Source: a virus
Taxonomy: Duplodnaviria; Heunggongvirae; Uroviricota; Caudoviricetes
Virus record (IMG/VR): IMGVR_UViG_2778261122_000001
Location: 1 to 61,573 of that record
Direction: 5' to 3' (one strand)
Length of the DNA stretch: 61,573 bases
The notes below the pieces were generated by a model. It made no database searches. It saw only the letters and a program-made list of their open reading frames with translations, and was not told the origin of the DNA. This document shows positions 21,510 through 38,042 of this stretch, piece after piece. The position numbers and the translations under genes are program-made. How positions within the stretch are numbered: the first letter of the stretch is position 1; each line of letters opens with the position of its first letter.

Positions 21510-21755
21510 GACATACCAATAACTCTTGTCTAAAAAGCCAGCAAGATAAAAAGTCAGTATTCACGACCACCAGCGTGTTTACTGTACTGCACCAAGTTTA
21601 CAGGTACAAAAAAACCGCTCAGCGGCGGGTTTAAGTTGTGTGGCGAAGTAACCATTCTTAACAGCATATTTGATTTTTTACGATTGTAAACGGTTGATTA
21701 TTCATCTCCAATAAAAATAATTGTGTGGGTATGCCCTTAACAATGGATAAGAAAC

Positions 21756-22202
21756 ATGAATAAAATGACTGTACTATTACTTAGCGCAACTATCATTTCA
21801 GGTTGTACTTCTTCCGTACCATTGATAAAGAAAACTCAATCAGGAAAACCTGAGGGGGTTTATCAAAATACGACAAAAGATAAAGTCAAAGATGCCCTTG
21901 TGAATTACTGCAATAGTAGAGGGTTGATAATTTACAACGCGGATAACAGCAGTGTTATATGTGGTAAAGAACTGGAAGGCGGCTCTGCTGTTTTCGGACA
22001 AATGTTAATCGGCAATGCCTATTCAACAACCCCGGTATCAAAAGTCAGATTTACTATCGCTCAAGTTAATAACGATACAAAAGTGTGGGCCGATATGTGG
22101 ATGGAAACTCAAATGGCAATGGGGCAAGTACAACAAATGGCTATAACAGACAACGCAAGCAAAAACACTATCCAACAACGTCTTGATGAGTTAAAACCTT
22201 AA
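21756..22202 (+). CDS. Lipoprotein of unknown function (insertion gene)
   Basis: MNKMTVLLLSATIISGCTSS signal peptide with lipobox; lies in AT-rich insertion. Confidence 0.6.
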   Translation: MNKMTVLLLSATIISGCTSSVPLIKKTQSGKPEGVYQNTTKDKVKDALVNYCNSRGLIIYNADNSSVICGKELEGGSAVFGQMLIGNAYSTTPVSKVRFTIAQVNNDTKVWADMWMETQMAMGQVQQMAITDNASKNTIQQRLDELKP

Positions 22203-22429
22203 GTCAATTAATTACATAAAATGGGGAGAGAAAATCGACTCCCCACACATTAAACTGATTTAATTACCTGTACTAGCTATAACTCCAACTGACAATTTGA
22301 GTAACCAGAACGAAATCAAGTTTGACAGCCCGCTTTGAGAGAAAAGCAAAAAATACGCTGCTGTACGGCTGATAAAAGAAACTAAGAATGCAAATTACCA
22401 GCCTGAAGACCATCGTTATGCCAGTACCA

Positions 22430-23692
22430 CTATATATCCCAGATCTCGCCATTATAAAGATGCTCGCTAATCTTTGGTGGATTTTTCTTAACATTAGGGT
22501 GACTCGCCAAAATGAGTCTTAATGTCCTGATAGCAACATAGGCCTTTATAACAATATCCCTTTGTTGTTTGAAATACTCCTGATTGAAGTTATTGTTATC
22601 GATGGCATGTGCTGGTTTTTGTCTAAGTTGCCTTACCTTTCTAAAGGTGTCAATCATATCTTTAACTGGCGCAGGATCTGTTGGCTGGAAATATTTATCA
22701 AGCCATGACTCAAGTATTTGTATAGTGCCTTTAGGCCTTACGACTATTTTCCCATCCTCGCGCTCCTCTTCAATTTCAAGCTCCACATCATCCTCGAAGA
22801 ATTTCTTATTAAGATTGTCGGACATCATTTTATCCAACAAAAGCATGAAATTATTAAATTCTGAACGAGTTGGTCGCAAAAGAAACCCGAACTCTTTAGG
22901 CATGTCATCGCTGTAATCTTTTCTAAAAAGTTCAGCCTTTCCTATTAACACGCTCATTTTATTAATTATTTTAAGTTCTTCCGTAAATGCACTAAAAATA
23001 GAAATTTTAGTCCCCCAAGCTCCTAATATGCTTGCAGCATAGTAATCGGGATGCAACTTTATATCTCCTTTTACTTCTTTCGCTGCCCAAACATTTTGGT
23101 GTTCAGGACTGAGATCACTCAGGTATCTCAAGAAAACTGCAACATATCTATTTAGACTGTCATCATAAGCAAACCCAAATGTTTTAAGCAATATTTGATC
23201 GTGTTCAGGAATATTGTCTGATTCATAATACTCATCCGTAATAGATATTTCCCCATGTATAAAGTCTGTAAAGTATGAATAACGTGGATCATTTCGGTAG
23301 TATTCCAAAACAGACAAATCAAAAGTTCTATAGTCAAATTGTCCCGCACCTCTTGCTAGCTCCATTTCATATGGTGACTTACTATAAGCAGAAAGCTTAC
23401 TAGATTTGGCTAGCATATTTTCATGGGGATATAAGCATATGTAATCTAAACTCTCTGAATCATCGAAATTCTTAAGGATATTATCCTTGGGGATTTTTGA
23501 AAACGCTTTAATATGAGGGTTATCCCCAAAACAAGCAGTTAAAATATCATCTTCGATTCCTTTTCTAACCAAAACTTTGAAAGTTTCGCTTTTGATATCG
23601 AAAAGACCATCTAACTTATAAATAGGCAATCCATTAAAATCACCTGATGAAAAATATTGTTCCTCGACTATTTCATATATTTCTTTAATCAT
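22430..23692 (-). CDS. Hypothetical 420-aa protein in AT-rich insertion downstream of Q
   Basis: Long uninterrupted ORF with AT-rich codon usage unlike flanking genes; no motif recognised. Confidence 0.6.
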   Translation of the reverse strand: MIKEIYEIVEEQYFSSGDFNGLPIYKLDGLFDIKSETFKVLVRKGIEDDILTACFGDNPHIKAFSKIPKDNILKNFDDSESLDYICLYPHENMLAKSSKLSAYSKSPYEMELARGAGQFDYRTFDLSVLEYYRNDPRYSYFTDFIHGEISITDEYYESDNIPEHDQILLKTFGFAYDDSLNRYVAVFLRYLSDLSPEHQNVWAAKEVKGDIKLHPDYYAASILGAWGTKISIFSAFTEELKIINKMSVLIGKAELFRKDYSDDMPKEFGFLLRPTRSEFNNFMLLLDKMMSDNLNKKFFEDDVELEIEEEREDGKIVVRPKGTIQILESWLDKYFQPTDPAPVKDMIDTFRKVRQLRQKPAHAIDNNNFNQEYFKQQRDIVIKAYVAIRTLRLILASHPNVKKNPPKISEHLYNGEIWDI

Positions 23693-24093
23693 CTCACAAT
23701 CCCAATATATGGTTGTTTACAATTTGTTTAAATAGTCACCAGCCAAGCTAAGCGATTGTATATTCATTACGTTCGAAACTATTTATTGTGTAACAATATC
23801 AGCTAAGTTACTGGCTATAGTATATGAGTTTAAAATTCTGCGCTCTCATAAGCATACTATATATAGTTATACCCCGAGTGATTGTGCTAAGCAACTGATT
23901 GCGCCCTACTAGATTTTATTTTTATGGTAAAATGTAGACCTCACTTCTAGCTTGGAGTTATTCCCTATTTATTAAGTACTACGTCCATATATGGCATAGT
24001 GCTACCTGTCAGCTCAGGTTTGGCACTGTGCCATAATAGCTGTTTCAGCTCACGTCTGAACAAATATAAATAACCCCCTCACTTAGAAGTGTT

Positions 24094-24459
24094 CTAACGG
24101 TCCATTTCTAGCTCAATTTCTAACATCATTAACATGCCATCAACTACACCTTCAGCCTTTTGCAATAAACGCCCAACCCAGCAATCAGAACGCCCATGTT
24201 TACGGGCAAGCGCCATAAACGTCATACCACCTACATAATAATCCACTAATAAATCGTGCAAATCGCTGTTGTTCTTTTTCAGGCGAGCCATGCACCCACA
24301 AATGATCATCGCGTCATCGTCACAACATTGCGGGCGGGATTTTACTTTTGAAGGGATTAGTCCTTTAAATCCTGCAGCAATAGACGACCAGGTGACATCC
24401 TCGTGATTATTTGCCACCCATGCACCCCAACGTTCAAGAACCATTTGAATATCACGCAT
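24094..24459 (-). CDS. Q: Late-gene antiterminator Q, phage 82/QuuD type
   Basis: Start trimmed to [14 protein letters not shown]; Cys-rich core as in remembered DLP12 QuuD. Confidence 0.8.
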
Positions 24460-24476
24460 CAACTTTCTCCACAAAA

Positions 24477-25472
24477 TCAGGCCAGCACGCCAATTGCCAG
24501 CGCACGATCGATAAAACGAAATATCAGCTCCAGCTGGGAGCCATACATCTCTTCAAATGCCACGGTATCCGCATGCAGCTCGTCGTGATGCTTTCTGCAC
24601 AAAGGCAACACAAAGAGGTCATGCGCTTTTGTACCCATTCCACCCTGACCGTGACCTATCAGGTGGTGGGGATCATCAGCAGGCTTTCCACAACATGCAC
24701 ACGGCTGTGTCTTAACCCAGCGCGTGTACTTTTCATTAACCCAGCGGCGACGTTTTGGGCGTAACATAAAAGACTCCGGCGACTCTGGATCCACTTTCAG
24801 CGCCAGCACCTTTTTCGCTTTATCCTGGATAATGCTGGTGGCAGGAACCGAAGGAACAAGGTCACTCTCCCGGGTGACAGACGGCACAACAGGCTTCGGT
24901 AATCTCAGTGCCTTACGGGCTGCACTTTCCGGTAAGGCATCCGCCAGGTCATTACGAACCAGCCACCAGCACAGTTCCGGCATTGTCACAACGTGACTAT
25001 CATCAAAACCGAGATCACGGCGCACAACAGATAACACCCAGCGGGCACAGCTATCCGTTGCCATTGATTCCAGCCGTTCCGTGAACTGATCGCGCAGCTG
25101 GTTATCGCAGTGCCAGCACAGACGGATTGCGCCCGGCGCGTGTCGCATTGTGGTCATGTTCTCGCTGTGCCAGTCGGAATGAGGCCACTGGCAGCCTTTT
25201 TCACGAAGTAACCAGCTTTCAAGACATTCCACGCCACCAGCACGACGGATCACTGCCTCATTGCGGAACACGGCCCGAACGGCAGGATCATCCGCCAGCG
25301 GTTGTGATGCCGCCGGAACGGCACCACTGGCGAAAGATGAATAACGTTCCGGCTCAGGCTCCAGCAGGACACGCCCCTGCATAAACAGGGGCATCAGCTC
25401 TGAACCTGGCCTGAACAATACGATCCCCATACGCGGGGCAATTTCAGGGGTCAGTAGTGCTCTCACGGTCAC
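24477..25472 (-). CDS. nin-region protein with C-terminal Cys/His-rich HNH-like motif
   Basis: 331 aa; C-terminal [28 protein letters not shown]...CRKHHDELH. Confidence 0.55.
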
Positions 25473-25473
25473 C

Positions 25474-26271
25474 TCAATGAACGGTATCGAGCAGCTTTAA
25501 CAGCTCAGGGAATCGGGATTCGAAGAAATGCGGCTGCGTCTCGCGCGGATTTGCGGGACTGGTGATATTCTTGCCGAACATGCAGCCTTTCGCTGTCAGC
25601 GACCAGAATTTTTTGATGTTGTTAATCGCGGTACGGCTGTATCGTTCGCGCTGCTCGACGATCCCCAGCTTCACCATCTGGTGATATGCCTGATTAGCTG
25701 TCAGGCGGATACCATACTGCTTCAGCAGTGCACTCAGTGACAGCGTGGGGCGGCTTGAGCCATCAGGCGCGTCAGCAGGAGCATCAATGGCATAGCGCGG
25801 TGCCAGATTCGGTAAGCCAACAGCCTCCTGGAGTTTCTGACAGGCACCAAGCACTGAAGAGTTAGACAGGTTTAATTCCCGGTGCATAAAGTCCAGCAGA
25901 ATCACACCAGCCTGCATCTTGTCAGCAGCCTGTCCGGATAATTTTTCCGGTGCGCTGGTTACCATGTCGAAAGTACGGATCACCTTCAGATGGAATGACG
26001 GGCTGATCCACATTGCATAGGCATACACCAGTTCTTTGCAGACATACGTCCCCTGGTTATTTCCGCCACGAATAACGTTAACTGGCTCTATATTGACCGA
26101 GTTGCAAATCTGCAACTCGCTTATTAAACGCTCAGTTTGCTCATTGCGGAGCCAGAATGCAGGCTTATGCTTATCCAGAGAACCAGCAGCCCTGTGCAGA
26201 TCGTTCAGGCTGTAACGCCCATAAGCATCACGACGAACTTCAATACCATCAATGACCATCAGATTATTCAT
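25474..26271 (-). CDS. KilA-N domain protein
   Basis: N-terminal KilA-N-like pattern (YSLNDLHRAAG...KPAFWLRNEQT). Confidence 0.65.
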   Translation of the reverse strand: MNNLMVIDGIEVRRDAYGRYSLNDLHRAAGSLDKHKPAFWLRNEQTERLISELQICNSVNIEPVNVIRGGNNQGTYVCKELVYAYAMWISPSFHLKVIRTFDMVTSAPEKLSGQAADKMQAGVILLDFMHRELNLSNSSVLGACQKLQEAVGLPNLAPRYAIDAPADAPDGSSRPTLSLSALLKQYGIRLTANQAYHQMVKLGIVEQRERYSRTAINNIKKFWSLTAKGCMFGKNITSPANPRETQPHFFESRFPELLKLLDTVH

Positions 26272-26290
26272 ACTTCGTTTCTCCTCTTAA

Positions 26291-26671
26291 TCAGGCGGCT
26301 GCACCCGCCGTTTTCTCGTACTTACTGATAGTTATCTCGACCTTCCCTTCCGGGATAACCGGTCCCCACTCCACCAGCATTCTTTTCACCTGGCTGTCGT
26401 CTTCCCACACACCCGCGTGGGTCAGGGCGTCAAACAGCGCCTTGTTATAGTTGTCCAGATCGCGGATCCGGTTATCCGGAGGAAACAACACGATCTCCAC
26501 TGAAGCAGGTGCCGACGTTGGTTTCGGCAGACGATGTAACTGCTCAACTATTGCTGTGCACGCCGCACTCTGGAATTTTCGCCCCGCCGCGCTTATCAGG
26601 CTCTTACCAGCAAATGCCCCTTTGTTGGGGTAGGTGTTCACGCTGGGTGGAAAAGGCAGAATCAGCGTCAT
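26291..26671 (-). CDS. rusA: RusA-family Holliday junction resolvase
   Basis: 126 aa with the RDLDN catalytic motif and RusA-like size. Confidence 0.75.
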   Translation of the reverse strand: MTLILPFPPSVNTYPNKGAFAGKSLISAAGRKFQSAACTAIVEQLHRLPKPTSAPASVEIVLFPPDNRIRDLDNYNKALFDALTHAGVWEDDSQVKRMLVEWGPVIPEGKVEITISKYEKTAGAAA

Positions 26672-26994
26672 ACTTTCAGCCCCCTCTCATGTAACCAGTG
26701 GGCTGCACGCAGCCTGGCGTTTTCCTCACCAGCAAGCAGTGCGCGGATAATCCCGGCCGCCTCGCTGTCGTCGTCCTTCACCGCGGTATGAAGCGTGATG
26801 CCCCGGGCCACGCCACGCTTTATCGTGATGACGCCTTTTTTCTCCAGTGCGCGAAGATGCTCCACCGCTGCATTCACTGAACGGTATCCCAGCATGGTAG
26901 CCACCTCCTGATTGGTTGGCGGGAAGCCACGTTCTTTCTGGTAAGAAATCAGCATATCCAGCACCTGCTGCTGGCATTGAGTTAACGTCGTCAT
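26668..26994 (-). CDS. LexA N-terminal-type DNA-binding domain protein without peptidase domain
   Basis: Start trimmed to MTTLTQCQQQVLDML; GFPPTNQEVATMLGYRSVNAAVEHLRALEKKGVITI follows the LexA winged-helix pattern; ends at ~108 aa. Confidence 0.65.
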   Translation of the reverse strand: MTTLTQCQQQVLDMLISYQKERGFPPTNQEVATMLGYRSVNAAVEHLRALEKKGVITIKRGVARGITLHTAVKDDDSEAAGIIRALLAGEENARLRAAHWLHERGLKV

Positions 26995-27245
26995 TAAGCC
27001 CCCACGTAATTCCCTGACAGATACCACTCTTCACCCGATGCAGCGCGCTTGCTGCTTTTCCGTAAGCACCGCTCACGATGCGCCAGAAAATTGTTTCGTT
27101 CTGGCTGGGAGTGGCTTTCACGGAATGCCTCCATCCACACCGTTGCAGCACGACGGTATAAACCCCTGGACTCCAGTTCTTCAGCATGGCGGGTCAGGCA
27201 CAAAATCACCCGGGGGTCGTTAGTGCCGACATAGAAATTGCGCAC
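26994..27245 (-). CDS. Hypothetical protein
   Basis: 83-aa ORF, stop/start overlap with neighbours. Confidence 0.35.
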   Translation of the reverse strand: MRNFYVGTNDPRVILCLTRHAEELESRGLYRRAATVWMEAFRESHSQPERNNFLAHRERCLRKSSKRAASGEEWYLSGNYVGA

Positions 27246-27481
27246 AGGTCTGGTTTCACAAACTGGTTCCGCTCCTGCGATATCTCAGCCTGGCGCGGGA
27301 AATGTCTGCGTGTATCCTCTTCACAACGGTGAGCCACACGCCCACTCTGACGTAACTTGCTTGCTGACTGCAGAACTCGCTGCCGTGAGTAACCTGCAAA
27401 AGCATCCGCAATGTCTCCGGAAGTACACCCCGGATGGGCTTCAATGAATTTCTGAACGTCATTCAAAAGGCTCATGATCAC
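27206..27481 (-). CDS. Hypothetical protein
   Basis: 91-aa ORF in operon context. Confidence 0.35.
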   Translation of the reverse strand: MIMSLLNDVQKFIEAHPGCTSGDIADAFAGYSRQRVLQSASKLRQSGRVAHRCEEDTRRHFPRQAEISQERNQFVKPDLCAISMSALTTPG

Positions 27482-28419
27482 CCCCTGAATCCTGCCGGGA
27501 TCTGGCTGTAGTCCACATTGTCGTAACTGGCTTTGAAGTACGGGTCTTCGCGTTTTTCTGTGTACGTGCTGACGGACGGCGATAAGCGCAGGGAAAGTTC
27601 ATCCCATTTTTCCCGCAGCTTCGACGGGCTGAACACGTTACGGCACCAGAACGGGTCGCGGCTGACGCGGCTGTACATCTCGCAGATTTGTTTGTGGGTA
27701 CGACCGTCCTGTACACACATCAGGCGAATTTCATTTGCCCAGGCTGTCCAGTTCGGTTCTTTGGGACGAACCACCTCGCCGTCACATTCGGCGGCCTGCT
27801 CGTACAGGGCGATGATTTTTTTCCAGAGCCACTGTGCGCAGGTCAAATCATCCTGCGTTCCCCACTGGCGCTTTTTAGGGCTGAATACAACCGCATCAGG
27901 ATGGCGAGTTAAAAAATCCTGTTCAGCCTTCTGCATGTCCGGTTGCGAAGCGTCCGGACGAGAAGGTTTTTTATCTGACGGATCATGTTTTGATTTTACT
28001 GACGGATCCCCGCCAGATTCTGACGGGTGAAAACCCGCTTTTTTGCCAGATTTCGACGCATCAAATTTTGACGGGTCAGATTTTGATGCGTCAGATTTTG
28101 ACGGGTCAGAATCTGACAGTTGAGAAAATGCCGCTGCCTGAAGCTTCGCAACGTTAAGCTGATAAACATTCGACGCATTGCGGTTACCCTGGCGACGCGC
28201 CTTACGCGTTAACCAGCCTTCTGCTTCCAGCCGTGCGATAGCCGTTCTGACGGTGCTCATCCCCGCGCCAATCTGGCGGGCAATGGTTTCAATTGATGGC
28301 CAGCACACACCTTCGTCATTACTGAAATCAGCCAGGCGGGCCATAATTGCCACGCTGGATAACTTCATGCCTGACGCAGCGCAACCATCCCATACATAGC
28401 CGGTTAATTTAGTGCTCAT
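27478..28419 (-). CDS. Replication initiator protein (origin iterons inside the gene)
   Basis: 313 aa; N-terminal HTH-like region, linker SDPSKSDASKSDPSKFDASKSG encoded by the DNA iterons; lambda-O-like architecture. Confidence 0.65.
   Translation of the reverse strand: MSTKLTGYVWDGCAASGMKLSSVAIMARLADFSNDEGVCWPSIETIARQIGAGMSTVRTAIARLEAEGWLTRKARRQGNRNASNVYQLNVAKLQAAAFSQLSDSDPSKSDASKSDPSKFDASKSGKKAGFHPSESGGDPSVKSKHDPSDKKPSRPDASQPDMQKAEQDFLTRHPDAVVFSPKKRQWGTQDDLTCAQWLWKKIIALYEQAAECDGEVVRPKEPNWTAWANEIRLMCVQDGRTHKQICEMYSRVSRDPFWCRNVFSPSKLREKWDELSLRLSPSVSTYTEKREDPYFKASYDNVDYSQIPAGFRG
27970..28130. repeat. Origin iterons: about eight direct repeats of a ~15-16-bp unit (ATTTTGACGGGTCAG-like)
   Basis: Visible tandem units gattttgacgggtcag, attttgatgcgtcag, attttgacgggtcag, aatctgacag inside the replication gene. 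Confidence 0.7.
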
Positions 28420-28428
28420 GACCGACCT

Positions 28429-28767
28429 CTATTTCCCTGAATTTACGACGAAACTGTTCGAGCGGGCTGAAGCACTCATGCTCATAGCCTTCGCGGAGGT
28501 AGATAACCCGTTGTGTTTCCGGCTCCCAACGAATGACTCTGACGGGCACTCCGTAGTGATCTTTGAACCAGCGGTTAACTTGTCGCAAAGGACTGTCTCC
28601 TTTTGCCGGTTGAAATCGCCCACAGCCCACTCTGCAAAGCTGTGGGTTACAATTTCCCTGTCACCTGGTACATTCACTGCATAGCAATACTCCACCTTCG
28701 CTTTTCCACCCGGTACAGGAAGTGCAATCAGTTGCGAGCGACGGTAGTGTGTTGTTAAACTGTTCAT
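28429..28767 (-). CDS. Hypothetical early protein
   Basis: 112-aa ORF with ATGA overlap to upstream gene; alternative 73-aa ORF 28409..28630 cannot be excluded. Confidence 0.3.
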
Positions 28768-29315
28768 GCGTTAGTTTCTCCACAGTCACGACACGCCACG
28801 GCGCCCGGAGCTGCACACTCGCGGGCGTCATTACTTTCTGAAATGCAAAAAATTTTGTAGACCAGTGCTGCATGCTCCTGCAGCTTCGAAATTGAGAGGT
28901 ACAGCTCGTCATTAATTGCTGTCTTCTCATGCGGTTCCACTACACCGTCTTCGATTGCTGAACGAATCTGTTTTGAATAACTGCCGATCTGTTCAATGAC
29001 TTCCAGCAGACGCTGGTTAATATCGGCGTTGTCCACATCCTCGACGTCAGGAAGAGACACAAAGACGCCATTTGCAGACTGCGCCACAGCATCAGCAATG
29101 AAGTGAGTTCCACCAGCACGTTGCAAAATCATTGCCCATCCCAGCGGGAAAATCTGATCGCCATCGGCACGAAGGCGGTTAAATAATGCGTTCTCTGTTA
29201 CATCCAGCCAGTCAGCAGCTTCAGCGTAACCCCCCGGCAACGCTGCGATAGTTTTTCTGACAGCTTTCACGTACCACTCAGGCTGTTTGTCTACTTTCCA
29301 GTGATGCTTACCCAC
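28764..29315 (-). CDS. Hypothetical early regulatory protein at the cII position
   Basis: 183-aa ORF directly downstream of cro; positional inference only. Confidence 0.4.
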
Positions 29316-29568
29316 GGTTCACCTCCTGTTCCTGTGGTTTAAACCCATTCTGGTTTTGGCTAGATTGAAAACGTGCCGGATAAAGAATCTGCATTTCGCT
29401 GATTTCACCCTTAAAAAAATTGGCTAAACGTTCTGCAAGCTCGATAGATGGAATCTGTTCCAGCCTCTCAATACGACTCAACGTCGCTGGATTGACTTGA
29501 ACACCCGCAGCAACATGCTGCAAAGTGAAACCATGCGCCTTACGCACATTTCGTAATGGTGATTGCAT
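29308..29568 (-). CDS. cro: Cro-like HTH repressor
   Basis: 86 aa, HTH pattern, divergent from cI. Confidence 0.65.
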   Translation of the reverse strand: MQSPLRNVRKAHGFTLQHVAAGVQVNPATLSRIERLEQIPSIELAERLANFFKGEISEMQILYPARFQSSQNQNGFKPQEQEVNRG

Positions 29569-29665
29569 ATAACCTCCAAATATTGCGCGTTATGCATGTT
29601 ATTTCACGCAAGTATTTTGCGCAAGTTGATTTGCTTATCACGCAATAAAGAAATGTAATAAACGC
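29569..29665. promoter_or_regulatory. Divergent immunity promoter/operator region (PR/PRM-like)
   Basis: 97-bp gap between divergent cro and cI with repeated TTGCGC / CACGCAA half-site motifs. Confidence 0.6.
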
Positions 29666-30358
29666 ATGAACATAGGAAACCGAGTCAGACAACTTCGCCA
29701 AGCGAAGAACATGAAAATCGCCGATCTCGCTGAAGCAATAGGAGTAGATGCGGCGAACATCTCGCGCTTAGAAACGGGTAAGCAGAAACAATTTACCGAA
29801 CAAACACTGAGTAATATTGCCAAGAGCTTAGGTGTTGATATTGCTGATCTCTTTACCTCTGCCCTCAAAAGCAATACTGTATATAAAAACAGTAATGATG
29901 AGGATGTTGCGCAGGTGAAGGATGTGTTCCGTATTGAAATGCTGGATATCAGTGCCAGTGCGGGAAATGGCCTTATCCAGGGCGGTGATGTCATTGATGT
30001 GATTCATGCCATCGAATACAGAACTGATAATGCTGTATCAATGTTCGGCGGACGACCAGCCAATCACATCAAAGTTATCAACGTTCGTGGGGACAGTATG
30101 TGTCCAACCATTGAGCCAGGAGATCTCATCTTCGTTGATGTCAGCATCAATCAGTTTGATGGTGATGGTATATATGTCTTTGGTTTTGATGACAAAATAT
30201 ACGTTAAAAGACTTCAAATGATTCCTGACAAACTGCTGGTGATTTCTGATAACCAGATTTACCGTGAATGGGGAATTACTAGCGAAAACGAACACCGATT
30301 CATGGTCTTTGGAAAGGTCTTAATCAGTCAGTCGCAAACCCTTAAGAGACATAATTAA
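29666..30358 (+). CDS. cI: CI-type prophage repressor (HTH plus S24 LexA-like autopeptidase)
   Basis: N-terminal HTH; C-terminal GDSM Ser and VKRL Lys of the S24 dyad. Confidence 0.85.
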   Translation: MNIGNRVRQLRQAKNMKIADLAEAIGVDAANISRLETGKQKQFTEQTLSNIAKSLGVDIADLFTSALKSNTVYKNSNDEDVAQVKDVFRIEMLDISASAGNGLIQGGDVIDVIHAIEYRTDNAVSMFGGRPANHIKVINVRGDSMCPTIEPGDLIFVDVSINQFDGDGIYVFGFDDKIYVKRLQMIPDKLLVISDNQIYREWGITSENEHRFMVFGKVLISQSQTLKRHN

Positions 30359-30377
30359 CTTCAATATCCCATCCATC

Positions 30378-30399
30378 GGCCACCGAAAGGTGGCTTTTT
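30378..30399 (+). terminator. Intrinsic terminator downstream of cI
   Basis: GGCCACC-gaaa-GGTGGC hairpin followed by TTTTT. Confidence 0.6.
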
Positions 30400-30685
30400 A
30401 TCACCCATCATTTTGCACATCTCGCAAAATATTACTTGCGCATTTCGCATTTTAATTTTATCTTTTGTTCCAGACCAACTACAGGATTACAACAAAATCT
30501 GGTTGCAACACGGTGCATGGTGCATGTGTCGTAAGCGGTCAGTAAATGTCAAAAACGAACAGTCAGGACGACCAAGAAGTAGCCGCCTTGGGCATATGAA
30601 GTCCAAGATGATTCGTTAGCAACAAAAAAGCGCCCTATAGGACGCTTCGCTCTTTAACAATCTGGATATCCACAACAGTAGCAAT

Positions 30686-31167
30686 CTACAGATTGCCGTT
30701 AAGTTTTCTGGCCAACTCCTCAATGGATGGAGGCGATACGTAATCCGGATTTTTATTCATCAGAAACTTATTTTCACAGTGGAGGCACCTGCTTTTATGA
30801 AAAAGCTCATCTTCGCTAACCGGGAATGGTTGAAGTATCGATACTATCTTTTGTCCAAAACATTTTGGGCAAAGATGCATGGTTATGCTGCCACCGTTCA
30901 CGATTACCTCCTTCGAGTATACAAAAGTACCCGACTCAAGTTGGTTAAGGATATAGCCTTCCGTCTGAGCCTCAAAGTTTTCGAATTCTGCAATTTTAGC
31001 TTTGAGAGAAGCATTTATTTCTTGATAAGAGCCCACCAGTTCAACGAGAGACACGCATTCGCGCTGAATAGACGCAAGCTTTGAGTTCAGCTCACCAATA
31101 GCCGCATTTACTTCAGCTTGAGTTTTTGCCTCGTTCATTAGTTTTGCAATCTGGGCTGTTTCACGAA
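30686..31167 (-). CDS. Hypothetical coiled-coil protein with C-terminal CPKC...CLHC zinc-ribbon-like motif
   Basis: Start trimmed to MTAIRETAQ; upstream in-frame extension crosses hairpin-rich GC-rich DNA and is probably non-coding. Confidence 0.45.
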
Positions 31168-31214
31168 TAGCCGTCATTGCTGCCGTTAATTCAGCGATCA
31201 CATTGAATACTCTT

Positions 31215-31268
31215 ATTGTTGTTGGGGATATCCAGATTAACCGAATCCTTGTTGTTGGGGAATAACCA
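31215..31268. repeat. Two direct repeats of TTGTTGTTGGGGA(T/A)ATA(T/A)CCAG, 33 bp apart
   Basis: 31215..31234 and 31248..31268 share 18 of 20 positions; lie 50-100 bp upstream of the 30686..31167 gene. Confidence 0.5.
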
Positions 31269-31486
31269 GGTCCACCTCGCCTGATGTGGCTAAAAGCAGG
31301 CACATAACAGCTAAGTATTTTCAACCAGAGAGAATCCTTAGCGTTGTGGTGAATGCGGCTCAGCGCACGCGGGTTAAGGTTGAGGCTGACAGTCGACCTT
31401 CTGTGGATACCCACCCGCCTGGTGTGCAACCTTCGCCAGGCACCGGGAGGCACCCGGCACCACAACTTTATGCTGTGTGTAGTCCT

Positions 31487-31621
31487 GGCGGTACCAGTTT
31501 GTACCCTTGCTTCCGGCTGGTACCGTCCTTTTTACAAAACAGAGAAGAGCCTCACCGGACGACGGGCTCATAACCCAATCCATCCGGGCGGCTGCCACCG
31601 CAGGTGTTCTTCTCTGTTTTG
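31487..31621 (+). other. Hairpin-dense GC-rich noncoding element (candidate structured RNA)
   Basis: GGCGGTACCAG/CTGGTACCG stem followed by TTTTT (31487..31533), then a perfect 14-bp inverted repeat CAAAACAGAGAAGA/TCTTCTCTGTTTTG around a 59-nt loop (31535..31621); strand unknown. Confidence 0.35.
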
Positions 31622-31746
31622 TGGAGAAACTAACCGCCCCTACGGGGGCATTTATGGAAATGTAATTGACTCAATAATCGCCGGACGGTGAGGGCTTCCT
31701 TTTACCCGAATTCAGCGCGGTGCAGCGCATATACGTGGAGAACAAA

Positions 31747-32283
31747 ATGTCATTTATTAAAACTTTTTCCGGGAAGCATTTTTATTATGACAGGATAAAT
31801 AAAGACGACATCGTTATTAACGATATCGCGGTTTCCCTTTCAAATATCTGTCGCTTTGCAGGACATCTTTCACACTTCTACAGTGTCGCCCAACATGCGG
31901 TGCTTTGCAGCCAGCTGGTGCCGCAGGAATTTGCTTTTGAAGCTTTAATGCATGATGCAACAGAAGCATATTGCCAGGACATCCCCGCACCACTGAAACG
32001 ACTTCTTCCTGACTATAAACGGATGGAAGAAAAAATAGACGCCGTAATCCGTGAGAAATACGGGTTACCTCCTGTTATGAGCACGCCAGTGAAATATGCC
32101 GATCTCATTATGCTGGCAACCGAACGCCGCGATCTCGGGCTTGATGATGGCTCTTTCTGGCCTGTGCTGGAAGGTATCCCGGCAACAGAGATGTTCAACG
32201 TGATTCCACTGGCTCCAGGCCATGCCTACGGGATGTTTATGGAACGCTTTAACGAATTATCGGAGTTACGCAAATGCGCATGA
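31747..32283 (+). CDS. HD-domain phosphohydrolase
   Basis: Start trimmed to MSFIKTF after GGAGAA; H...HD metal-binding pattern (FAGHLSHFYSVAQHAV...LMHDATEAY). Confidence 0.75.
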   Translation: MSFIKTFSGKHFYYDRINKDDIVINDIAVSLSNICRFAGHLSHFYSVAQHAVLCSQLVPQEFAFEALMHDATEAYCQDIPAPLKRLLPDYKRMEEKIDAVIREKYGLPPVMSTPVKYADLIMLATERRDLGLDDGSFWPVLEGIPATEMFNVIPLAPGHAYGMFMERFNELSELRKCA

Positions 32284-32636
32284 ATGTTTTCGAAATGGAA
32301 GGGTTTCTTCGTGGGAGATGTGTACCGCGAGATCTGAAAGTGAATGAAACGGATGCTGAATACCTGGTGCGTAAATTCGATGCGCTTGAAGCTAAATGTG
32401 CAGCACAGGAAAACAAAGTAATACCAGTGTCAACTGAACTGCCACCAGCAAATGAAAGTGTTTTGTTATTCGATGCTAACGGAGAAGGCTGGCTAATTGG
32501 CTGGCGTTCTCTCTGGTACACCTGGGGACAAAAAGAAACCGGAGAATGGCAGTGGACATTTCAGGTCGGGGACCTTGAAAACGTCAATATCACTCACTGG
32601 GCAGTAATGCCAAAAGCACCGGAGGCTGGAGCATAA
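32274..32636 (+). CDS. Hypothetical early protein
   Basis: 120-aa ORF overlapping upstream stop. Confidence 0.45.
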   Translation: MRMNVFEMEGFLRGRCVPRDLKVNETDAEYLVRKFDALEAKCAAQENKVIPVSTELPPANESVLLFDANGEGWLIGWRSLWYTWGQKETGEWQWTFQVGDLENVNITHWAVMPKAPEAGA

Positions 32637-32941
32637 TGACCACTTTTACCGACAAAGAACTGATTAAAGAAATTAAAGAGCGTATCAGCAGCCTTGACGT
32701 GCGAGACGATATTGAGCGCCGTGCTTATGAAATCGCACTCCTATCTCTGGAAGTAGAACCAGATGAACGCGAAGCTTATGAATTATTCATGGAAAAGCGT
32801 TTTGGTGACTTAGTAGATCGTCGGAGAGCAAAAAACGGCGATAACGAATACATGGCATGGGATATGACTCTCGGTTGGATCGTCTGGCAGCAACGAGCTG
32901 GTATCCATTTCTCAACAATGTCACAGCAAGAGGTGAAATAA
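32636..32941 (+). CDS. Hypothetical early protein
   Basis: 101-aa ORF, ATGA overlap with neighbours. Confidence 0.45.
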   Translation: MTTFTDKELIKEIKERISSLDVRDDIERRAYEIALLSLEVEPDEREAYELFMEKRFGDLVDRRRAKNGDNEYMAWDMTLGWIVWQQRAGIHFSTMSQQEVK

Positions 32942-33291
32942 TGGAGCCATACAGCCTCACACTCGATGAGGCCTGTCATTTTCTCAAGATATCCAGACCG
33001 ACTGCCATTAACTGGATACGCACAGGGCGTCTTCAGGCAACACGCAAAGATCCCACTAAGAATAAATCTCCTTACCTCACAACACGACAAGCCTGCATTG
33101 CGGCTCTTCAGTCTCCGCTGCATACTGTCCAGGTGAGCGCGGGTGATGGCATAACAGAGGAAAGAAAATGTCACTCTTCCGCAGAGGTGAAATATGGTAC
33201 GCCAGTTTCACATTGCCGAACGGTAAAAGATTTAAACAGTCTCTTGGAACAAAGGACAAAAGGCAGGCGACAGAACTCCATGACAAGCTAA
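32941..33291 (+). CDS. xis: Excisionase-like DNA-binding protein
   Basis: [36 protein letters not shown] pattern directly upstream of int; 3' extent uncertain. Confidence 0.45.
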
Positions 33292-34331
33292 AGGCTGAAG
33301 CATGGCGGGTCAGCAAACTTGGTGAAATACCTGATATAACGTTCGAGGAAGCGTGTGTCAGGTGGCTTGAAGAGAAAGCACATAAAAAATCACTGGACGA
33401 TGACAAAAGCCGGATCGGATTCTGGCTTCAACATTTCGCAGGAATGCAACTAAGAGACATTACTGAATCAAAAATTTATTCAGCAATGCAGAAAATGACG
33501 AACCGGCGTCATGAGGAAAACTGGAAACTCAGGGCAGAAGCATGCAGAAAAAAAGGGAAACCTGTTCCAGAATACACGCCAAAACCAGCGTCCGTTGCAA
33601 CGAAGGCTACGCATCTTTCATTTATAAAGGCCCTACTAAGAGCCGCAGAGCGTGAATGGAAAATGCTGGATAAGGCACCAATTATTAAAGTGCCTCAACC
33701 AAAGAATAAACGGATCCGCTGGCTGGAGCCCCATGAAGCACAAAGGCTGATTGATGAATGTCCGGAGCCATTAAAGTCTGTTGTTGAATTTGCACTGGCA
33801 ACAGGCTTAAGACGCTCGAACATCATCAACCTTGAATGGCAACAAATAGATATGCAGCGCCGGGTGGCATGGATAAACCCGGAAGAGAGTAAATCAAACC
33901 GCGCAATTGGCGTTGCGCTGAATGATACTGCATGTCGCGTATTGAAAAAACAAATCGGGAATCATCACCGTTGGGTATTTGTGTACAAGGAAAGCTGTAC
34001 CAAACCAGACGGAACGAAAGCGCCAACAGTAAGGAAGATGCGGTATGACGCAAACACAGCCTGGAAAGCGGCGCTGAGACGGGCTGGTATTGATGATTTC
34101 AGATTTCACGACTTGAGACACACCTGGGCAAGTTGGCTGGTTCAAGCCGGAGTCCCGTTGTCAGTGTTACAGGAAATGGGAGGCTGGGAGTCTATCGAAA
34201 TGGTTCGTCGATATGCTCACCTTGCACCTAATCACCTTACCGAACACGCACAGCAAATAGACTCGATCCTGAACCCATCGGTCCCAAATTTGTCCCAGTC
34301 AAAAAATAAGGAAGGTACTAATGATGTGTAA
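33168..34331 (+). CDS. int: Tyrosine integrase, P22 Int type (thrW-targeting)
   Basis: [33 protein letters not shown] matches remembered P22 Int; C-terminal R...HxxR...Y catalytic pattern. Confidence 0.9.
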
Positions 34332-34345
34332 CTTATTGATTTAAA

Positions 34346-34392
34346 TGGTGCCGATAATAGGAGTCGAACCTACGACCTTCGCATTACGAATC
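34346..34392 (-). other. Partial tRNA-Thr(CGU) 3' end, 47 nt: attachment-site core between the two prophages
   Basis: Reverse complement GATTCGTAATGCGAAGGTCGTAGGTTCGACTCCTATTATCGGCACCA equals the 3' portion of E. coli thrW from the anticodon loop to CCA; 5' half absent. Confidence 0.8.
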
Positions 34393-34727
34393 TGTAGCAC
34401 CAATCATAACTATCTGTTTTAGCAAGCATTAACCGCATTCACTAACCTATAGTTGATGGCACAAACAGAAAGTTGATGCATGATGTTGCCATGTGTATGT
34501 CACAAATACGGCACAACGATCTTCAAACATGTAGCCACACATCCACAGAAGAGCACAAAGCCTTGCAATCCAGTGCAAAGCTTTGTGTGTTTAAATTTTG
34601 TCTAAGCATTCTAGTGAAAACATAGTAAAATCAGTAACGGCTGGAAATCATTCAATACTCGCACTATCGAAAGTTAACCAGCCAGCCGCAGTATCCTATC
34701 ATGACAAGTTACTGCGGCTTTTTATAT

Positions 34728-35024
34728 TTAACGGATCAACAGCCAGACCAGCAGACACACCACCACTGGCACAGCAAAATCCAACAAACTTCCCACATCC
34801 CACACGCGTGGATCAAAACCGCCCCACCACGGCATATTCATACGCTTGCCATGCCCGAACATTTCTATCCAGCGATATTCTGCCTGGGTGTGTTCTCGGG
34901 ATATAAAAAACACACACCCTATTACAGCCCCAGTTATCGGATCATTAAATAAACTCAAAAACAGAAACTGTAGCGATAATGATATTAGCACATGAATGAA
35001 ATGAGATATGTCCATACTTACCAA
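34728..35024 (-). CDS. Hypothetical small membrane protein downstream of tailspike
   Basis: 98-aa ORF with about three hydrophobic segments. Confidence 0.35.
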
Positions 35025-36676
35025 CTCAAAAGAATATTTACATCACCTACGCTAATAGGATTTGGAGTGACATTTTGAAATGTTACCCTGACGATATTAT
35101 CGGAAACAGCAATAGCATCTGAAATTATACCTATTGGGAGATCATTCAACACTGTCATTTGTAGAGGAACTTCATTAGATATGATATATCCGGTCAATGT
35201 TCTTTGCATTGAGAACCTGCCACTTGCTGAAATCGTGCCAACATTCAACGTTGATTTTACTTTCTTTCCTGAATATGTAACACCATTCAAATCTATATGT
35301 GAGTTATTTATTAATGTCAACGCAGAATATCCTGAAAAATCACTATTAGCCCCGGCCTGCCTTACTACAGAGAATTTATCAGCTCGTATTGCAAAGTCAC
35401 CAGTTGCTTCCGATGCATTAATGTTATTGGTAACAACAACACCTCCATCAACACAGTTAATAGCATATGTTGCATTTCCTTTTATCGTTATGTTTCTTAA
35501 ACTTAAATAAGATGCAAACTGGCATGTGGCAAAAGCAATTGCTCCATCTGATAGATACCCATCTGAAAATTCAACAGACGAAGAATACCTTGATCCTATA
35601 CACGATTGAGTTCTCGGTTTAAAAATAGATCCGCCTTTAATATAACAATCCGCCGCATGCTCAACCTTAAGAGAGTCTTCCCCTGAATTGTAAGAAGTGA
35701 ATTCTGTGCCCCTCACGCTTGCACTGTACACACATTCAAGGGAAATATTAGCATTTGATATATGAACCCCATTAACCCCAAACTGAGATCCAGAGCCAGA
35801 AACAAGAACTCCACAAACAGAGCCTCCATTTACAATCAAATTGTTTGCATCCCAAACTACGCAACTACCACATTGTGAATCAGGGTAGTATCCACCTCCG
35901 ATAATGAGTCCGTAATCACCATCTGTTTCAACAGCAACATTTTTTATGCTGTATATATTTGATCTAAATTGTATTCCTTTTGTTGTTTTTATTATGGAAT
36001 TTATTGGTTTTGCCACAACCCCGTTAACTGGGCCTGAAATTATACCATTGTGACTCATATCCAATGTTAAAACATTTCCATCCTTGGAAATTATCATCGC
36101 TCCACATGAAATGTCTCTCCTGCCAGAAAGTATACAATATTTACCAACATGAAAATTATCTGCATTCTGAACAGAAACTTTAAATATACCAGTCAACACA
36201 TCATAAGAAACATCATATACATTAACAGGACTATAATCCACACCCAATATATTCAGAGGAATATTATCAAACTCATCATAATGTGAATAACCATCAGGAA
36301 TGTGAATATACTGCCCGTATTCTATCTGTGATCTAAGCTGATCGGGATCGTACTTCAGCACATTAGGAAAATAGAACTGCTGTGATCCATATGCATCGTA
36401 CACAGCCATAGAATGCCCTTGTACAGTAACGAACTTAGCAATCTGTCCGTTATATACTGGATACCCTGCGGCATTGATGACGATTGGCTGTGCAACAGGA
36501 ACGTGAGAACCATCTTCGTTTTCTACATAAACCTGAATCTGGTTTTCTGGATTTACCGGGTCAGTATCAATTTTACCGATATAAATTTTGCCATTGGCTA
36601 CGGCTTTAAAAGAACGCGCCATAGTGAAGAGTTGCGATGGCATCGATACGATCACATTGGCTGTAATGTCTGTCAT
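35018..36676 (-). CDS. Tailspike protein with P22 gp9-type N-terminal head-binding domain
   Basis: First ~110 aa ([43 protein letters not shown]) match remembered P22 gp9; remainder divergent. Confidence 0.85.
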
Positions 36677-36876: not shown

Positions 36877-37755
36877 TTAAAGTTTAATTGAGTGGCACGC
36901 TCTATCACGTATCGCTGCGAATGAAGCTATCTCTTTAAGTGCCCAGCTTTGCTCAGCCATTAAATGGCGAAGTGCTTTTAGTTCAGCTCTTACTGCTGAA
37001 ACGTCATACCCCGCTTTTGTCAGAATATTGATTAGTTTATACGCCGGGCTGCATTCAACGAGTGCGCTTCGGTCAAGAGCAACAGTATCACCGCATTGCT
37101 GCCTGATAATGGCGTAAGGTGCATTTTCAGCAAACCATGAAATCGGGAAGTTAATATCCAGTTTTGGCGCTGGTAACTCTTCTTGTTTGCCGATGAACTC
37201 GCCTTCAAGCACTACCCTGTGGATGTACTCTACGGCCAGCGGGATTTGTTCAATTGAAAGTTCATCAATGCTGTCAATACCAAAACGCTGATGAACCATA
37301 TTGTATGCATCGTCATAGCGAAGTCCTTTCTTTCCTACCAGCATGTTTACTGCATCGCGTAGCGGTGTTCTTTCCTCAACAGTGGTTTTCTTTCCTTTTA
37401 CATACTCGTCATGTTTGCGAATTGAAGGCAGAACTTCTGCTGTTACCCACTTGCGGAATTTGTGCGGGACTGAACCTTTATTGACTGCATCGCGGCAGCG
37501 CAGAACCAATGTATACATACCTGATTCGCTCACAATGCTTATATTCTGCTCACCACCAAGGGTGTAACTTAAAGTTACTCCCTTTTCATCGTCATCAAGT
37601 GCAGTAAGCGCCTTGCGTGAGTTAGTCAAAGCTAAAGCATCACAAACATCTTTAGCTACAAACCACGGCTCGCCGCACTTGTTAATGACGCGAATTTCAC
37701 TGTCGCCAAATTTGAAGATGGTGAAATCGTTTTGTGCCTTTGCTATACTTTTCAT
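36877..37755 (-). CDS. ant: Antirepressor Ant
   Basis: 292 aa, antirepressor-like N-terminal domain; arc-ant-tailspike order as in P22. Confidence 0.8.
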
Positions 37756-37817
37756 GTCAATATTTCCTAATCCGATTTGTTGATACCGAAGCCCTGACTG
37801 TTACCGCAGTTGGGGCT

Positions 37818-38042
37818 TCAACTTTTCACTTCTTTAAAGTGCCTACCTTCTACAGTTGCTCTGAGATAAAAATTCTTATCTTTACCGTTTAGTGCTTCCC
37901 AAGCATCAACAATGCACTTATTACAGATGTGGACTTCTCGATAACCAATAGCTTTCCTGTCAATATTAGTGAACATAACAGTTTCTTTATCTGTCAATGT
38001 GGATGCATGACAGAAGTCGCAATCTATATAAGATACCTTCAT
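37818..38042 (-). CDS. Hypothetical Cys-rich protein inserted between arc and ant
   Basis: 74 aa with CDFC...CNKC spacing. Confidence 0.35.
   Translation of the reverse strand: MKVSYIDCDFCHASTLTDKETVMFTNIDRKAIGYREVHICNKCIVDAWEALNGKDKNFYLRATVEGRHFKEVKS

Follow-up and report, generated by a model that had tools for sequence, protein, structure and literature searches.

A yfdR-yfdS-yfdT early-left operon in a lambdoid prophage of the class without N and Rec module, and a candidate leader RNA upstream of it

The early-left operon of phage lambda (N-nutL, cIII, kil, gam-bet-exo, xis-int) lies downstream of cI and oL and ends in xis-int-att. Other plans are known among lambdoid phages. SfII, SfV, and SfIV have been described as being without cII, cIII, and N (PMC3851460), and PMC12315714 (Genome Res 2025) describes a "no Rec module" class (class A, LLS-type), with yfdP/Q/R-type early-left genes, O-only replication, no N, and Chi sites at the right end. 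For N-less lambdoid phages, PMC12315714 offers a "put-like RNA" as no more than a guess. HK022 and HK639 have put antiterminator RNAs, of which putL is positioned at the head of the pL transcript. Here we describe the early-left operon of a prophage contained in part in a stretch of 61,573 nucleotides (IMG/VR virus record IMGVR_UViG_2778261122_000001), hereafter the window. The operon has the position and direction of its lambda counterpart; unlike in lambda, N, cIII, kil, and Red genes were not detected in it.

The yfdR-yfdS-yfdT string and its relatives

Three closely packed ORFs occupy positions 31747-32941 on the + strand and lead directly to xis and int. The original prediction had placed three ORFs at exactly these positions, with an HD-domain hydrolase as the first one, and both points were borne out. 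The first ORF (31747-32283, 178 aa) matches Pfam YfbR-like/HD_3 and PHROG 318 (E 6e-110), and its HD motif could be aligned to PDB 2GZ4. It is yfdR, a gene for an HD-domain 5'-deoxynucleotidase/DnaA-binding protein; the comparison with E. coli prophage HD proteins that had been proposed showed 99% identity to YfdR of the K-12 prophage CPS-53 (176/178 residues, gap-free and over the full length). The two following ORFs had been regarded as unknowns and turned out to be named genes, yfdS (32274-32636, + strand, 120 aa) and yfdT (32636-32941, + strand, 101 aa; PHROG 660), whose products are each 96% identical to the K-12 proteins (115/120 and 97/101 residues, respectively). YfdS passes the gathering cutoff of Pfam DUF551 (22.2 bits; cutoff, 22), and its single-sequence AlphaFold model was unusable (pLDDT 41). 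The ratios of synonymous to nonsynonymous codon differences from K-12 were 17:2 for yfdR, 11:5 for yfdS, and 11:4 for yfdT. Judged by their sequences, the three ORFs are genuine genes and near-identical copies of the K-12 prophage genes yfdR, yfdS, and yfdT.

The yfdR/yfdS junction overlaps via ATGCGCATGA, and a TAATG overlap forms both the yfdS/yfdT and the yfdT/xis junction, coupling the xis start (ATG at 32941) to the yfdT stop. Because stops and starts overlap, yfdR-yfdS-yfdT, xis, and int are a single translationally coupled gene string. The excisionase gene xis (32941-33291, + strand) matches Pfam HTH_17 and PHROG 2907, the latter from residue 29 of a longer ORF, and the 5' extension of this ORF has its counterpart in K-12 ypdJ. 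It is followed by the integrase gene (33168-34331, + strand; Pfam Phage_integrase, E 3e-48). A 3' tRNA gene fragment at 34346-34392 (- strand), read directly as TGGTGCCGATAATAGGAGTCGAACCTACGACCTTCGCATTACGAA, represents the attachment-site core at the prophage end. We take this fragment to be thrW (tRNA-Thr); ARAGORN did not report a whole tRNA.

In the cryptic K-12 prophage CPS-53 (KplE1), the order, lengths (537/363/306 nt), and overlaps of yfdR-yfdS-yfdT (b2361-b2363) equal those in the window, and 111 bp of upstream sequence, starting at window position 31636, are also in common. CPS-53 retains yfdP and yfdQ upstream, which the window does not; it has lost the cI/cro region, carries a different excisionase (torI) after yfdT, and has its integrase at the opposite prophage end. 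The Shigella flexneri serotype-converting phage SfII (NC_021857) is 96.8% identical to the window in cI/cro/oL and 98.65% identical, in one HSP, over 31272-34391 (sRNA gene, yfdRST, xis, int, and att), with the homology stopping at 34391. The SfII counterpart of the 0.65 kb at 30618-31271 is a replacement sequence that lacks boxA and carries another small - strand ORF, and gtr genes follow att in SfII. SfII is described as a myovirus, whereas the head and tail genes of the window prophage are of the lambda type. SfV and SfIV resemble the window in yfdR-int and in having the leader RNA motif described below, but keep yfdP-yfdQ.

Homology to SfIV, mEp460, and K-12 stops at 31634-31636, where these sequences carry about 1.3 kb extra containing yfdP-yfdQ (BLAST breakpoints). 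The junction alignment places the deletion endpoints in two similar short hairpins. In the window, a long hairpin (31540-31625) is followed by a short one (31635-31650) that holds the junction (31540-31650, + strand; RNA fold z = -3.8). These data indicate that a clean 1.3-kb deletion between two similar short hairpins took out yfdP and yfdQ, and that the early-left module is short, or "minimal", because of this deletion. The contiguous deletion junction was found in 459 of 5426 complete E. coli genomes (approximately 8%), and the infectious phage SfII carries the identical deletion. We conclude that the three ORFs are the distal part of an SfII/SfV/CPS-53-type early-left module in a lambdoid prophage at a tRNA-derived att.

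Membership of the class without N and Rec module

N, cIII, kil, and recombination genes had been predicted to be absent, and none was detected by PHROG and Pfam scans. The families N, cIII, kil, Red/Erf/RecT/RecE, and anti-RecBCD were absent from the + strand ORFs of at least 30 aa between cI and xis, as well as from the larger nin/replication-region ORFs. The scans brought up only a RusA resolvase, encoded in the nin region, and a Q-like antiterminator. Across the full set of ORFs running from cI through int, neither a SAP gene nor one for an exonuclease, SSB, or anti-RecBCD protein was found, and the + strand ORFs in 30359-31746 gave no match to the N family (PHROG/Pfam). Among the replication genes tested, only the O-type was present. 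The window contains 11 Chi sites versus 2.2 expected, 9 of them on the - strand (the top strand in the standard map orientation). The sites are confined to 20087-32449, 3.6-16 kb from the cos/lysis end. As the window holds only part of the prophage, this count does not extend to the whole phage genome.

The lambdoid gene order is common to this prophage and the class A phages. Both have yfdR-type early-left genes, both are devoid of N, SAP, exonuclease, SSB, and anti-RecBCD genes, and both have abundant Chi sites in one orientation clustered at the right end; unlike class A, the window prophage is also missing yfdP and yfdQ. The prophage is a member of this published lambdoid class without N and without a Rec module, and this type of early operon was described previously for SfII and relatives (PMC3851460) and for the LLS class (PMC12315714). 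Recombination for the phage would be performed by host RecBCD acting at Chi. The overall explanation, in which a yfdR-yfdS-yfdT module was shortened by deletion in a phage of this class, is in our view highly probable.

Possible function of YfdR

The biochemistry of K-12 YfdR is published (PMC4776307). According to that paper, YfdR is a low-affinity nucleotidase with dNMP phosphatase activity, its substrate affinity being far lower than that of YfbR, and it binds DnaA directly, at domain I. Multicopy yfdR and yfdQ together with yfdS or yfdT inhibited replication initiation, yfdQ was indispensable for the effect on initiation in vivo, and deletion of yfdQRST had no phenotype. The paper terms the function of YfdR "elusive" and mentions SfV orf29-31 as homologues. 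In the window, the initiation-inhibiting set is incomplete: yfdR, yfdS, and yfdT are kept and yfdQ (DUF2303) is gone. The deletion of this gene, required in the K-12 experiments, counts against a mechanism through DnaA.

YfdR would be an early protein aimed at host DNA metabolism. Our leading, still tentative suggestion is that it may bind DnaA domain I and, with the help of YfdS or YfdT, damp oriC initiation and the DnaA-DnaB contact; the dNMP phosphatase activity would be secondary and metal dependent.

Alternatively, and this we regard as rather doubtful, YfdR could be chiefly an enzyme, acting on dNMPs as a 5'-phosphatase and thereby altering the deoxynucleotide pool soon after induction, its DnaA binding being incidental. 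The early 5'-deoxyribonucleotidase of phage T5 is a model for such a pool-reshaping enzyme. Consistent with an enzyme, the HD motif of YfdR is intact (VAQH50, MH69D70, and QD78 align with the same residues of PDB 2GZ4, E 1e-13), yfdR is under strong purifying selection, the matching families PHROG 318, 6402, and 8467 are annotated as "deoxyribonucleoside 5' monophosphate phosphatase", and K-12 YfdR bears the RefSeq name "5'-deoxynucleotidase". Since an enzymatic role requires no YfdQ, it also agrees with the yfdQ-deleted form. However, YfdR stays below the curated cutoffs of the NCBIfam 5'-deoxynucleotidase equivalog (19.9 versus 122 bits) and of Pfam YfbR-like (24.2 versus 25.9 bits). The HD fold family and the H...HD...D motif are common to YfdR, the E. 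coli HD-domain 5'-deoxynucleotidase YfbR, and PDB 2GZ4 (Atu1052), but the relationship is only a distant one. The "simple housekeeping nucleotidase" that the original prediction had named as refuting its functional proposal is near to the reported K-12 activity, and DnaA binding comes in addition (PMC4776307).

The three ORFs could also be non-functional, the short operon being debris of a decaying prophage that lost N, the recombination genes, and yfdPQ. The deletion is demonstrably there, the leader RNA motif of the window is an atypical copy, and the K-12 counterpart lies in a cryptic prophage. Yet yfdR, yfdS, yfdT, xis, and int are all intact, the substitutions in the three yfd genes are largely synonymous, and SfII, which has the identical arrangement, has been obtained by induction as a phage, tested on different hosts for plaque formation, and sequenced (PMC3772137). 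In addition, the N-less, Rec-less design defines a coherent class in which a Chi cluster compensates (PMC12315714), not random loss. We therefore consider decay improbable.

It is very improbable that YfdR is, as had been floated, an anti-defence enzyme degrading signalling nucleotides or opposing nucleotide-depleting immunity: the early-gene position, broad HD superfamily chemistry, and a weak secondary match to PHROG 7076 ("dATP triphosphohydrolase", E 1e-4) speak for it, but a PADLOC scan of yfdR, yfdS, yfdT, and two adjacent small genes matched nothing, the activities on record for YfdR are hydrolysis of dNMPs and binding to DnaA (PMC4776307), yfdR is near-ubiquitous across E. coli prophage remnants, K-12 included, a phage-related phenotype of a K-12 yfdR deletion is not reported, and the relevant passages of four papers (PMC4776307, PMC3851460, PMC12315714, and PMC10834534) do not tie YfdR-type proteins to anti-defence.

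The region between cI and yfdR and a conserved leader RNA

The claim that only three ORFs lie between the immunity region and xis held for the shortness of the operon and missed the 1.39 kb between cI and yfdR (30359-31746), which carry a - strand gene and RNA features. At the left edge of the immunity region is a cI-like repressor gene (29666-30358, + strand; Pfam HTH_3 and Peptidase_S24; cI in the SfII annotation), followed by the intrinsic terminator of the cI transcript (30378-30395, + strand; terminator scan and SfII annotation). Two oL-like operators read from the sequence, TTGCACATCTCGCAA and TTGCGCATTTCGCAT, lie together with a putative pL (TTGCGC-18-TATCTT) at 30413-30465 on the + strand and match the TTGCRC-N5-GCA motif found between cro and cI. 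Because a consensus scan called no + strand promoter across 29400-34700, we infer pL and the route from it to yfdR.

A perfect rrn-type boxA, CGCTCTTTAACAA, is located at 30648-30660 (+ strand) as an exact 12-mer with a single occurrence in the window; as in lambda, it lies downstream of oL, here by approximately 190 nt. Directly 5' of it on the + strand is a hairpin (30627-30648) which the terminator scan of the - strand (9 bp, then TTTTTTG) identified as a strong intrinsic terminator serving the - strand gene. In lambda the order is boxA and then boxB, whereas a hairpin 5' of boxA is the arrangement of rrn leaders. At 21 nt 3' of boxA there is a 6-bp hairpin with a 4-nt loop (30681-30696) that overlaps the - strand gene's stop codon. 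This convergent gene (30686-31177) encodes a protein of 163-171 aa with a coiled coil and a C-terminal CxxC...CxxC; it belongs to PHROG 1244 (E 2e-58, function unknown), all of its homologues (56/56) are named "hypothetical protein" and none has a Pfam domain, and there was no PADLOC match. Further downstream is an sRNA gene (31313-31535, + strand) with a full-length match to Rfam RF02076 (43.1 bits, E 5e-8); since this score is under the gathering score of 47, the gene is best called STnc100/PasD-like. It ends in an intrinsic terminator, a 13-bp GC-rich hairpin with U5 (31490-31535). Both the convergent gene and the sRNA gene are located inside the leader, which sets it apart from that of lambda.

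A conserved structured leader RNA motif is present at 30552-30623 (+ strand; covariance model R1, 78.4 bits, E 4e-25). It occurs in the window as a single copy (R1), with no second copy on the pR side. The motif (approximately 65 nt) consists of a closing stem P1, the hairpin GGC-AGGAC-GCC, a joint with the core ACGAAGUAGCC, a variable stem P2, and then GAUGA; motif sequences were collected by a fixed 20-base pattern, and the core is invariant within that set. Covariation is strong: in 45 distinct sequences, pairing was found in 95.2% of cells versus 75.6% after shuffling, and the covariation score was 0.51 versus 0.13. Wobble pairs do not give the strand, as G-U and A-C occur in roughly the same numbers; for this reason it was assigned from the promoter position only. 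There was no match in Rfam, and a literature search on the exact GAAGTAGCCGCC returned unrelated primers only. A hammerhead-like reading of the words GAUGA and CGAAG was rejected by hand, the junction strands misfitting the hammerhead core.

A strong consensus promoter was predictable at 92 of 154 unique motif loci, the motif start there lying mostly about 5-8 nt past the expected transcription start, and in 76 of the 154 the motif is 12-15 nt from the -10 hexamer of the strong promoter. Across loci, boxA is enriched approximately 46-fold within 150 nt downstream of the motif. According to annotations, eight motif-bearing phages have no annotated N (SfII, SfIV, SfV, phiNP, AH07, ST64B, SPN3UB, and mEp237). 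The motif was also found in mEp460_4F5 (BLAST), and ZF40 belongs to the motif-bearing group of Enterobacterales temperate phages; in mEp460, an operon of this kind occurs with the motif absent. When the ORFs that come first after the motif in other phages were clustered, 51 unrelated clusters resulted. Among 10 representatives of these ORFs there was no N-type PHROG (8 matched only families of unknown function and 2 matched nothing). The window's copy is less typical, with five substitutions at otherwise conserved positions and 78 bits versus about 85-95 for other copies.

The motif, a structured RNA at the very beginning of the putative pL transcript in N-less phages, is placed like putL. It differs from put RNAs in topology, with two hairpins within a closing stem, and in lacking a second copy downstream of pR. 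By eye, similarity is limited to short words, and R1 matches nothing at HK022 putL and putR or at the annotated HK639 putL. No homology to these elements could be demonstrated, as neither comparison connects them to the motif.

Transcription from pL would have to traverse 1.3 kb of untranslated RNA including the sRNA terminator. Possibly, though rather less likely than not, boxA and the conserved 5' leader RNA would render the pL transcription complex termination-resistant and so replace N. Complexes formed at rrn-type boxA counter Rho-dependent terminators and are not known to counter intrinsic ones, and the sRNA terminator is intrinsic, which speaks against antitermination by boxA. The atypical copy in the window and the motif-free mEp460 operon speak against a role of the leader RNA. 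As an alternative, read-through from the sRNA promoter could feed yfdR-xis instead. The leader RNA is a candidate substitute for N.

The yfdRST finding is real yet ordinary. The natural yfdQ-less variant in infectious SfII can be used to test the need of YfdR for YfdQ in acting on DnaA. The conserved, unannotated leader RNA is a by-product that outweighs the original three-ORF finding in importance and merits a further look. If the motif confers termination resistance in cis, it would define a second class of phage antiterminator RNAs, one with no relation to put. We think it somewhat unlikely, though conceivable, that early-left operons lacking N open, in a wide range of temperate phages of Enterobacterales, with such an undescribed cis-acting RNA of about 65 nt that replaces N, here assisted by boxA. 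For the question of how N-less lambdoid phages pass terminators on the way to xis, the leader RNA with boxA would provide a concrete, mutable candidate.

The yfdRST string and its phage class

The three ORFs predicted downstream of cI were confirmed exactly: yfdR (31747-32283, +), yfdS (32274-32636, +) and yfdT (32636-32941, +) run straight into xis (+), whose ATG lies at 32941 with no gap after yfdT, and int (33168-34331, +). Stop and start codons overlap along yfdR-yfdS-yfdT-xis (ATGCGCATGA, TAATG and TAATG), as is characteristic of genes coupled in translation. The immunity region of this lambdoid prophage contains genes for a cI-like repressor (29666-30358, +), a cro-like (29308-29568, −) and a cII-like protein (28764-29315, −) and an O-like replication protein (27478-28419, −).

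YfdR, YfdS and YfdT are equal in length to their counterparts in prophage CPS-53 of Escherichia coli K-12 MG1655, with 176/178, 115/120 and 97/101 identical residues, respectively. By this identity, the two supposed unknowns are YfdS (family DUF551) and YfdT. Codon differences from K-12 are mostly synonymous (synonymous:nonsynonymous, 17:2 in yfdR, 11:5 in yfdS and 11:4 in yfdT). The infectious Shigella phage SfII shows 98.65% DNA identity to positions 31272-34391 in one HSP, and the yfdRST-int block is shared with SfIV, SfV, mEp460 and many E. coli prophages. The K-12 gene ypdJ (12095-12235 of the CPS-53 locus) matches the start of the window's xis ORF together with its 5' extension (32857-32997), so that it is probably what remains of an excisionase gene that was replaced.

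PHROG and Pfam scans of all + strand ORFs of at least 30 aa from cI to xis, plus the larger ORFs of the replication/nin region, gave no match to families of N, cIII, kil, Red, Erf, RecT/RecE or anti-RecBCD proteins; they turned up no more than a resolvase of the RusA type (26291-26671) and a Q-like antiterminator (24094-24474). This bears out the original prediction of an operon without N or recombination genes, an arrangement already described. In the SfIV genome paper, cII, cIII and N are reported absent from SfII, SfV and SfIV (PMC3851460). A 2025 Genome Research study describes a class without a Rec module (68/314 lambdoid phages) with early-left genes of the yfdP/yfdQ/yfdR type, often only an O-type replication gene, and numerous Chi sites that share one orientation and gather at the right end; its prototype, LLS, is said there to have no N homologue, and a put-like RNA is offered as a guess (PMC12315714). 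The window contains 11 Chi octamers (2.2 expected), nine of them on the − strand, the equivalent of the top strand in the standard lambda map. All 11 fall within 20087-32449, i.e., 3.6-16 kb from the lysis/cos end, and are confined to the side of the first prophage that carries Q, nin and the replication and early genes. Thus, the prophage fits the no-Rec class including its Chi pattern, and the finding as originally stated is real but already known, with named genes, a published phage and a published architectural class.

Directly after int, a 3' tRNA gene fragment of 47 nt, which we take to be thrW, was found at 34346-34392 (−), with no whole tRNA. Beyond it lies the right end of another prophage, which is P22-like (34392-35018), suggesting that two prophages occupy one att site in tandem. 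The second prophage (35018-59000; injection proteins, portal, terminase) carries genes for a tailspike (35018-36676, −), an antirepressor (36877-37755, −) and the sar antisense RNA (37757-37823; Rfam, 72.7 bits), and its closest relatives are Kapi1, CUS-3 and Sf101. A low-GC island (0.34-0.37; 22430-23692, −, and 21756-22202, +) lies between the Q-like antiterminator and lysis genes. Its 420-aa ORF, without a PHROG match, sits downstream of Q in the cargo position that holds stx genes in Stx phages.

Loss of yfdP-yfdQ and a proposed role of YfdRST

Homology of SfIV, mEp460 and K-12 to the window stops at 31634-31636; between the two flanks, these three carry approximately 1.3 kb with yfdP and yfdQ (DUF2303) that the window lacks. 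The breakpoints fall in two similar short hairpins, CCTTGCAGGG 5' of yfdP and CCCCTGCGGGGG 3' of yfdQ, and a single hybrid hairpin is present at the window's junction. Judged by these sequences, yfdP and yfdQ were lost in a homology-assisted deletion, one that also occurs outside the window: SfII has the same deletion, and among 5426 complete E. coli genomes, 459 contain a contiguous match to a 201-nt probe across the junction.

Functional evidence comes from the K-12 proteins, which are 96-99% identical to those of the window. According to the K-12 study, purified YfdR binds DnaA, with DnaA Phe46 being important for contact; multicopy yfdQ and yfdR together with yfdS or yfdT inhibit initiation at oriC, and deletion of the cluster had no phenotype. 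Its authors, who name SfV orf29-31 as homologues, propose a lambda-P-like shutdown of host initiation (PMC4776307). On this evidence we tentatively favor an early role of YfdRST directed at host replication, with the main caveat that yfdQ, required in vivo in K-12, is absent here. A role in the dNMP pool ranks next and appears rather unlikely. YfdR keeps the HD motif (H50, H69-D70 and D78 in an alignment with PDB 2GZ4) and matches PHROG 318, "deoxyribonucleoside 5' monophosphate phosphatase" (E 6e-110). The anti-defense role once thought conceivable for the HD protein has no support: PADLOC gave no matches, and the papers on YfdR consulted draw no such link.

The early-left leader

The count of only three ORFs between the immunity region and xis stood for yfdRST but skipped 1.39 kb at 30359-31746, which carries further features. 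The cI terminator (30378-30395) is followed by two oL-type operator repeats (30413-30450) with the same motif as oR and a weak candidate for the early-left promoter pL alongside, and by a conserved RNA motif (30552-30623, +; covariance model R1). Next come a hairpin terminating a − strand gene (30627-30648) and, directly 3' of it, a perfect rrn-type boxA, CGCTCTTTAACAA (30648-30660, +). The distance from oL downstream to this boxA is ~190 nt, and its exact 12-mer occurs once in the window. The boxA is common to SfIV-type leaders and is not in those of SfII or SfV.

The convergent gene (30686-31177, −; PHROG 1244) encodes a protein of 163-171 aa with an N-terminal coiled coil and a C-terminal zinc ribbon (CxxC...CxxC). 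Neither Pfam nor PADLOC nor NCBIfam gave a match for this protein, and its homologues are all "hypothetical." Its location between pL and the early-left genes is moron-like, and such positions often hold lysogenic-conversion or exclusion genes. An STnc100/PasD-like sRNA gene (31313-31535, +; RF02076, 43.1 bits versus a gathering score of 47, E 5e-8), embedded in the leader just 5' of yfdR, ends in a strong intrinsic terminator; two further hairpins lie at 31540-31650. In EHEC lysogens, copies of STnc100 are abundant and are expressed (PMC5331693); STnc100 copies also serve as prophage markers (bioRxiv 10.64898/2026.05.13.724894). Therefore, before it could reach yfdR and xis, any pL transcript would have to pass an antisense gene, an intrinsic terminator and 1.3 kb of RNA that is not translated, without the help of N.

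Three side observations concern this region. SfII_35, a 112-aa ORF annotated over the sRNA gene in SfII, is probably spurious. The direct repeat TTGTTGTTGGGGA (31216-31228 and 31249-31261, 33 bp apart), noted by eye only, lies in the divergent stretch that separates the − strand gene from the sRNA gene and may bind a regulator. At ~2650-3270 of the SfIV locus, where p35/p36 are annotated on the − strand, the boxA is followed by a + strand ORF that has relatives in PHROG 1744 and a good Shine-Dalgarno sequence (MHKTEPKIVAPGYT...); p35/p36 may have been assigned to the wrong strand.

The leader RNA motif as a candidate for the N function

A 64-nt core of the motif is common to SfII, SfIV, SfV, Citrobacter phiNP and Pantoea AH07, which differ in immunity type. 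Loci with a copy include L001 (4046-4110), L002 (SfIV, 2504-2568), L007, L008, L009 and L207-L209. The copies were collected with a 20-base pattern, which itself fixed the "invariant" core. This pattern was found in at least 120 IMG/VR contigs, in 77 genome contigs (54/77 above 72 bits with R1, almost all Enterobacterales) and in 51 deposited phage genomes, including ST64B, mEp460_4F5 (the closest cI relative of LLS), SPN3UB, mEp237, ZF40 and YeP1-3. In 45 of the 51 phage records listed, the match lies over unannotated sequence or the record lacks annotation; it overlaps a "hypothetical protein" in four and a repeat region in two. Rfam 15 gave no match to the motif, R1 gave none at HK022 put or the annotated HK639 putL, and the sequence was not found printed in the literature searched.

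In 45 distinct sequences, the closing stem P1, the hairpin and the variable second stem P2 were paired in 95.2% of cells (75.6% when shuffled), with a covariation of 0.51 versus 0.13 and 120 double-change cells. Slid controls all reached 44% or less, and RNAalifold independently found the same helices. The window's copy (78 bits with R1) has five substitutions at conserved positions: the G12U/C20A pair is compensatory in the small hairpin, and the others shift the P2 register. A strong sigma-70 promoter-like site lies just 5' of the motif in 92/154 unique loci; its position, not wobble pairs, set the strand. In 76 of these 92 loci the −10 hexamer ends 12-15 nt before P1, and the motif therefore begins at approximately +6 to +9 of the transcript.

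The first ORFs downstream form 51 unrelated clusters. No N-type PHROG family was detected among 10 cluster representatives (eight matched families of unknown function only, two nothing), and no N is annotated in eight motif-bearing annotated phages inspected. A boxA follows within 150 nt 3' of the motif in 17/154 loci, ~46-fold over background. The operon also occurs without the motif, in mEp460. We consider the motif, which is ~65 nt long and is placed at the 5' end of the pL transcript in many N-less temperate phages of the Enterobacterales, a candidate cis-acting leader or antiterminator RNA. That this conserved 5' leader RNA, here with boxA, might be the missing N substitute of the N-less phages is a candidate reading we hold to be doubtful; if true, it would make directly testable how early transcription in N-less lambdoid phages passes terminators on the way to xis.
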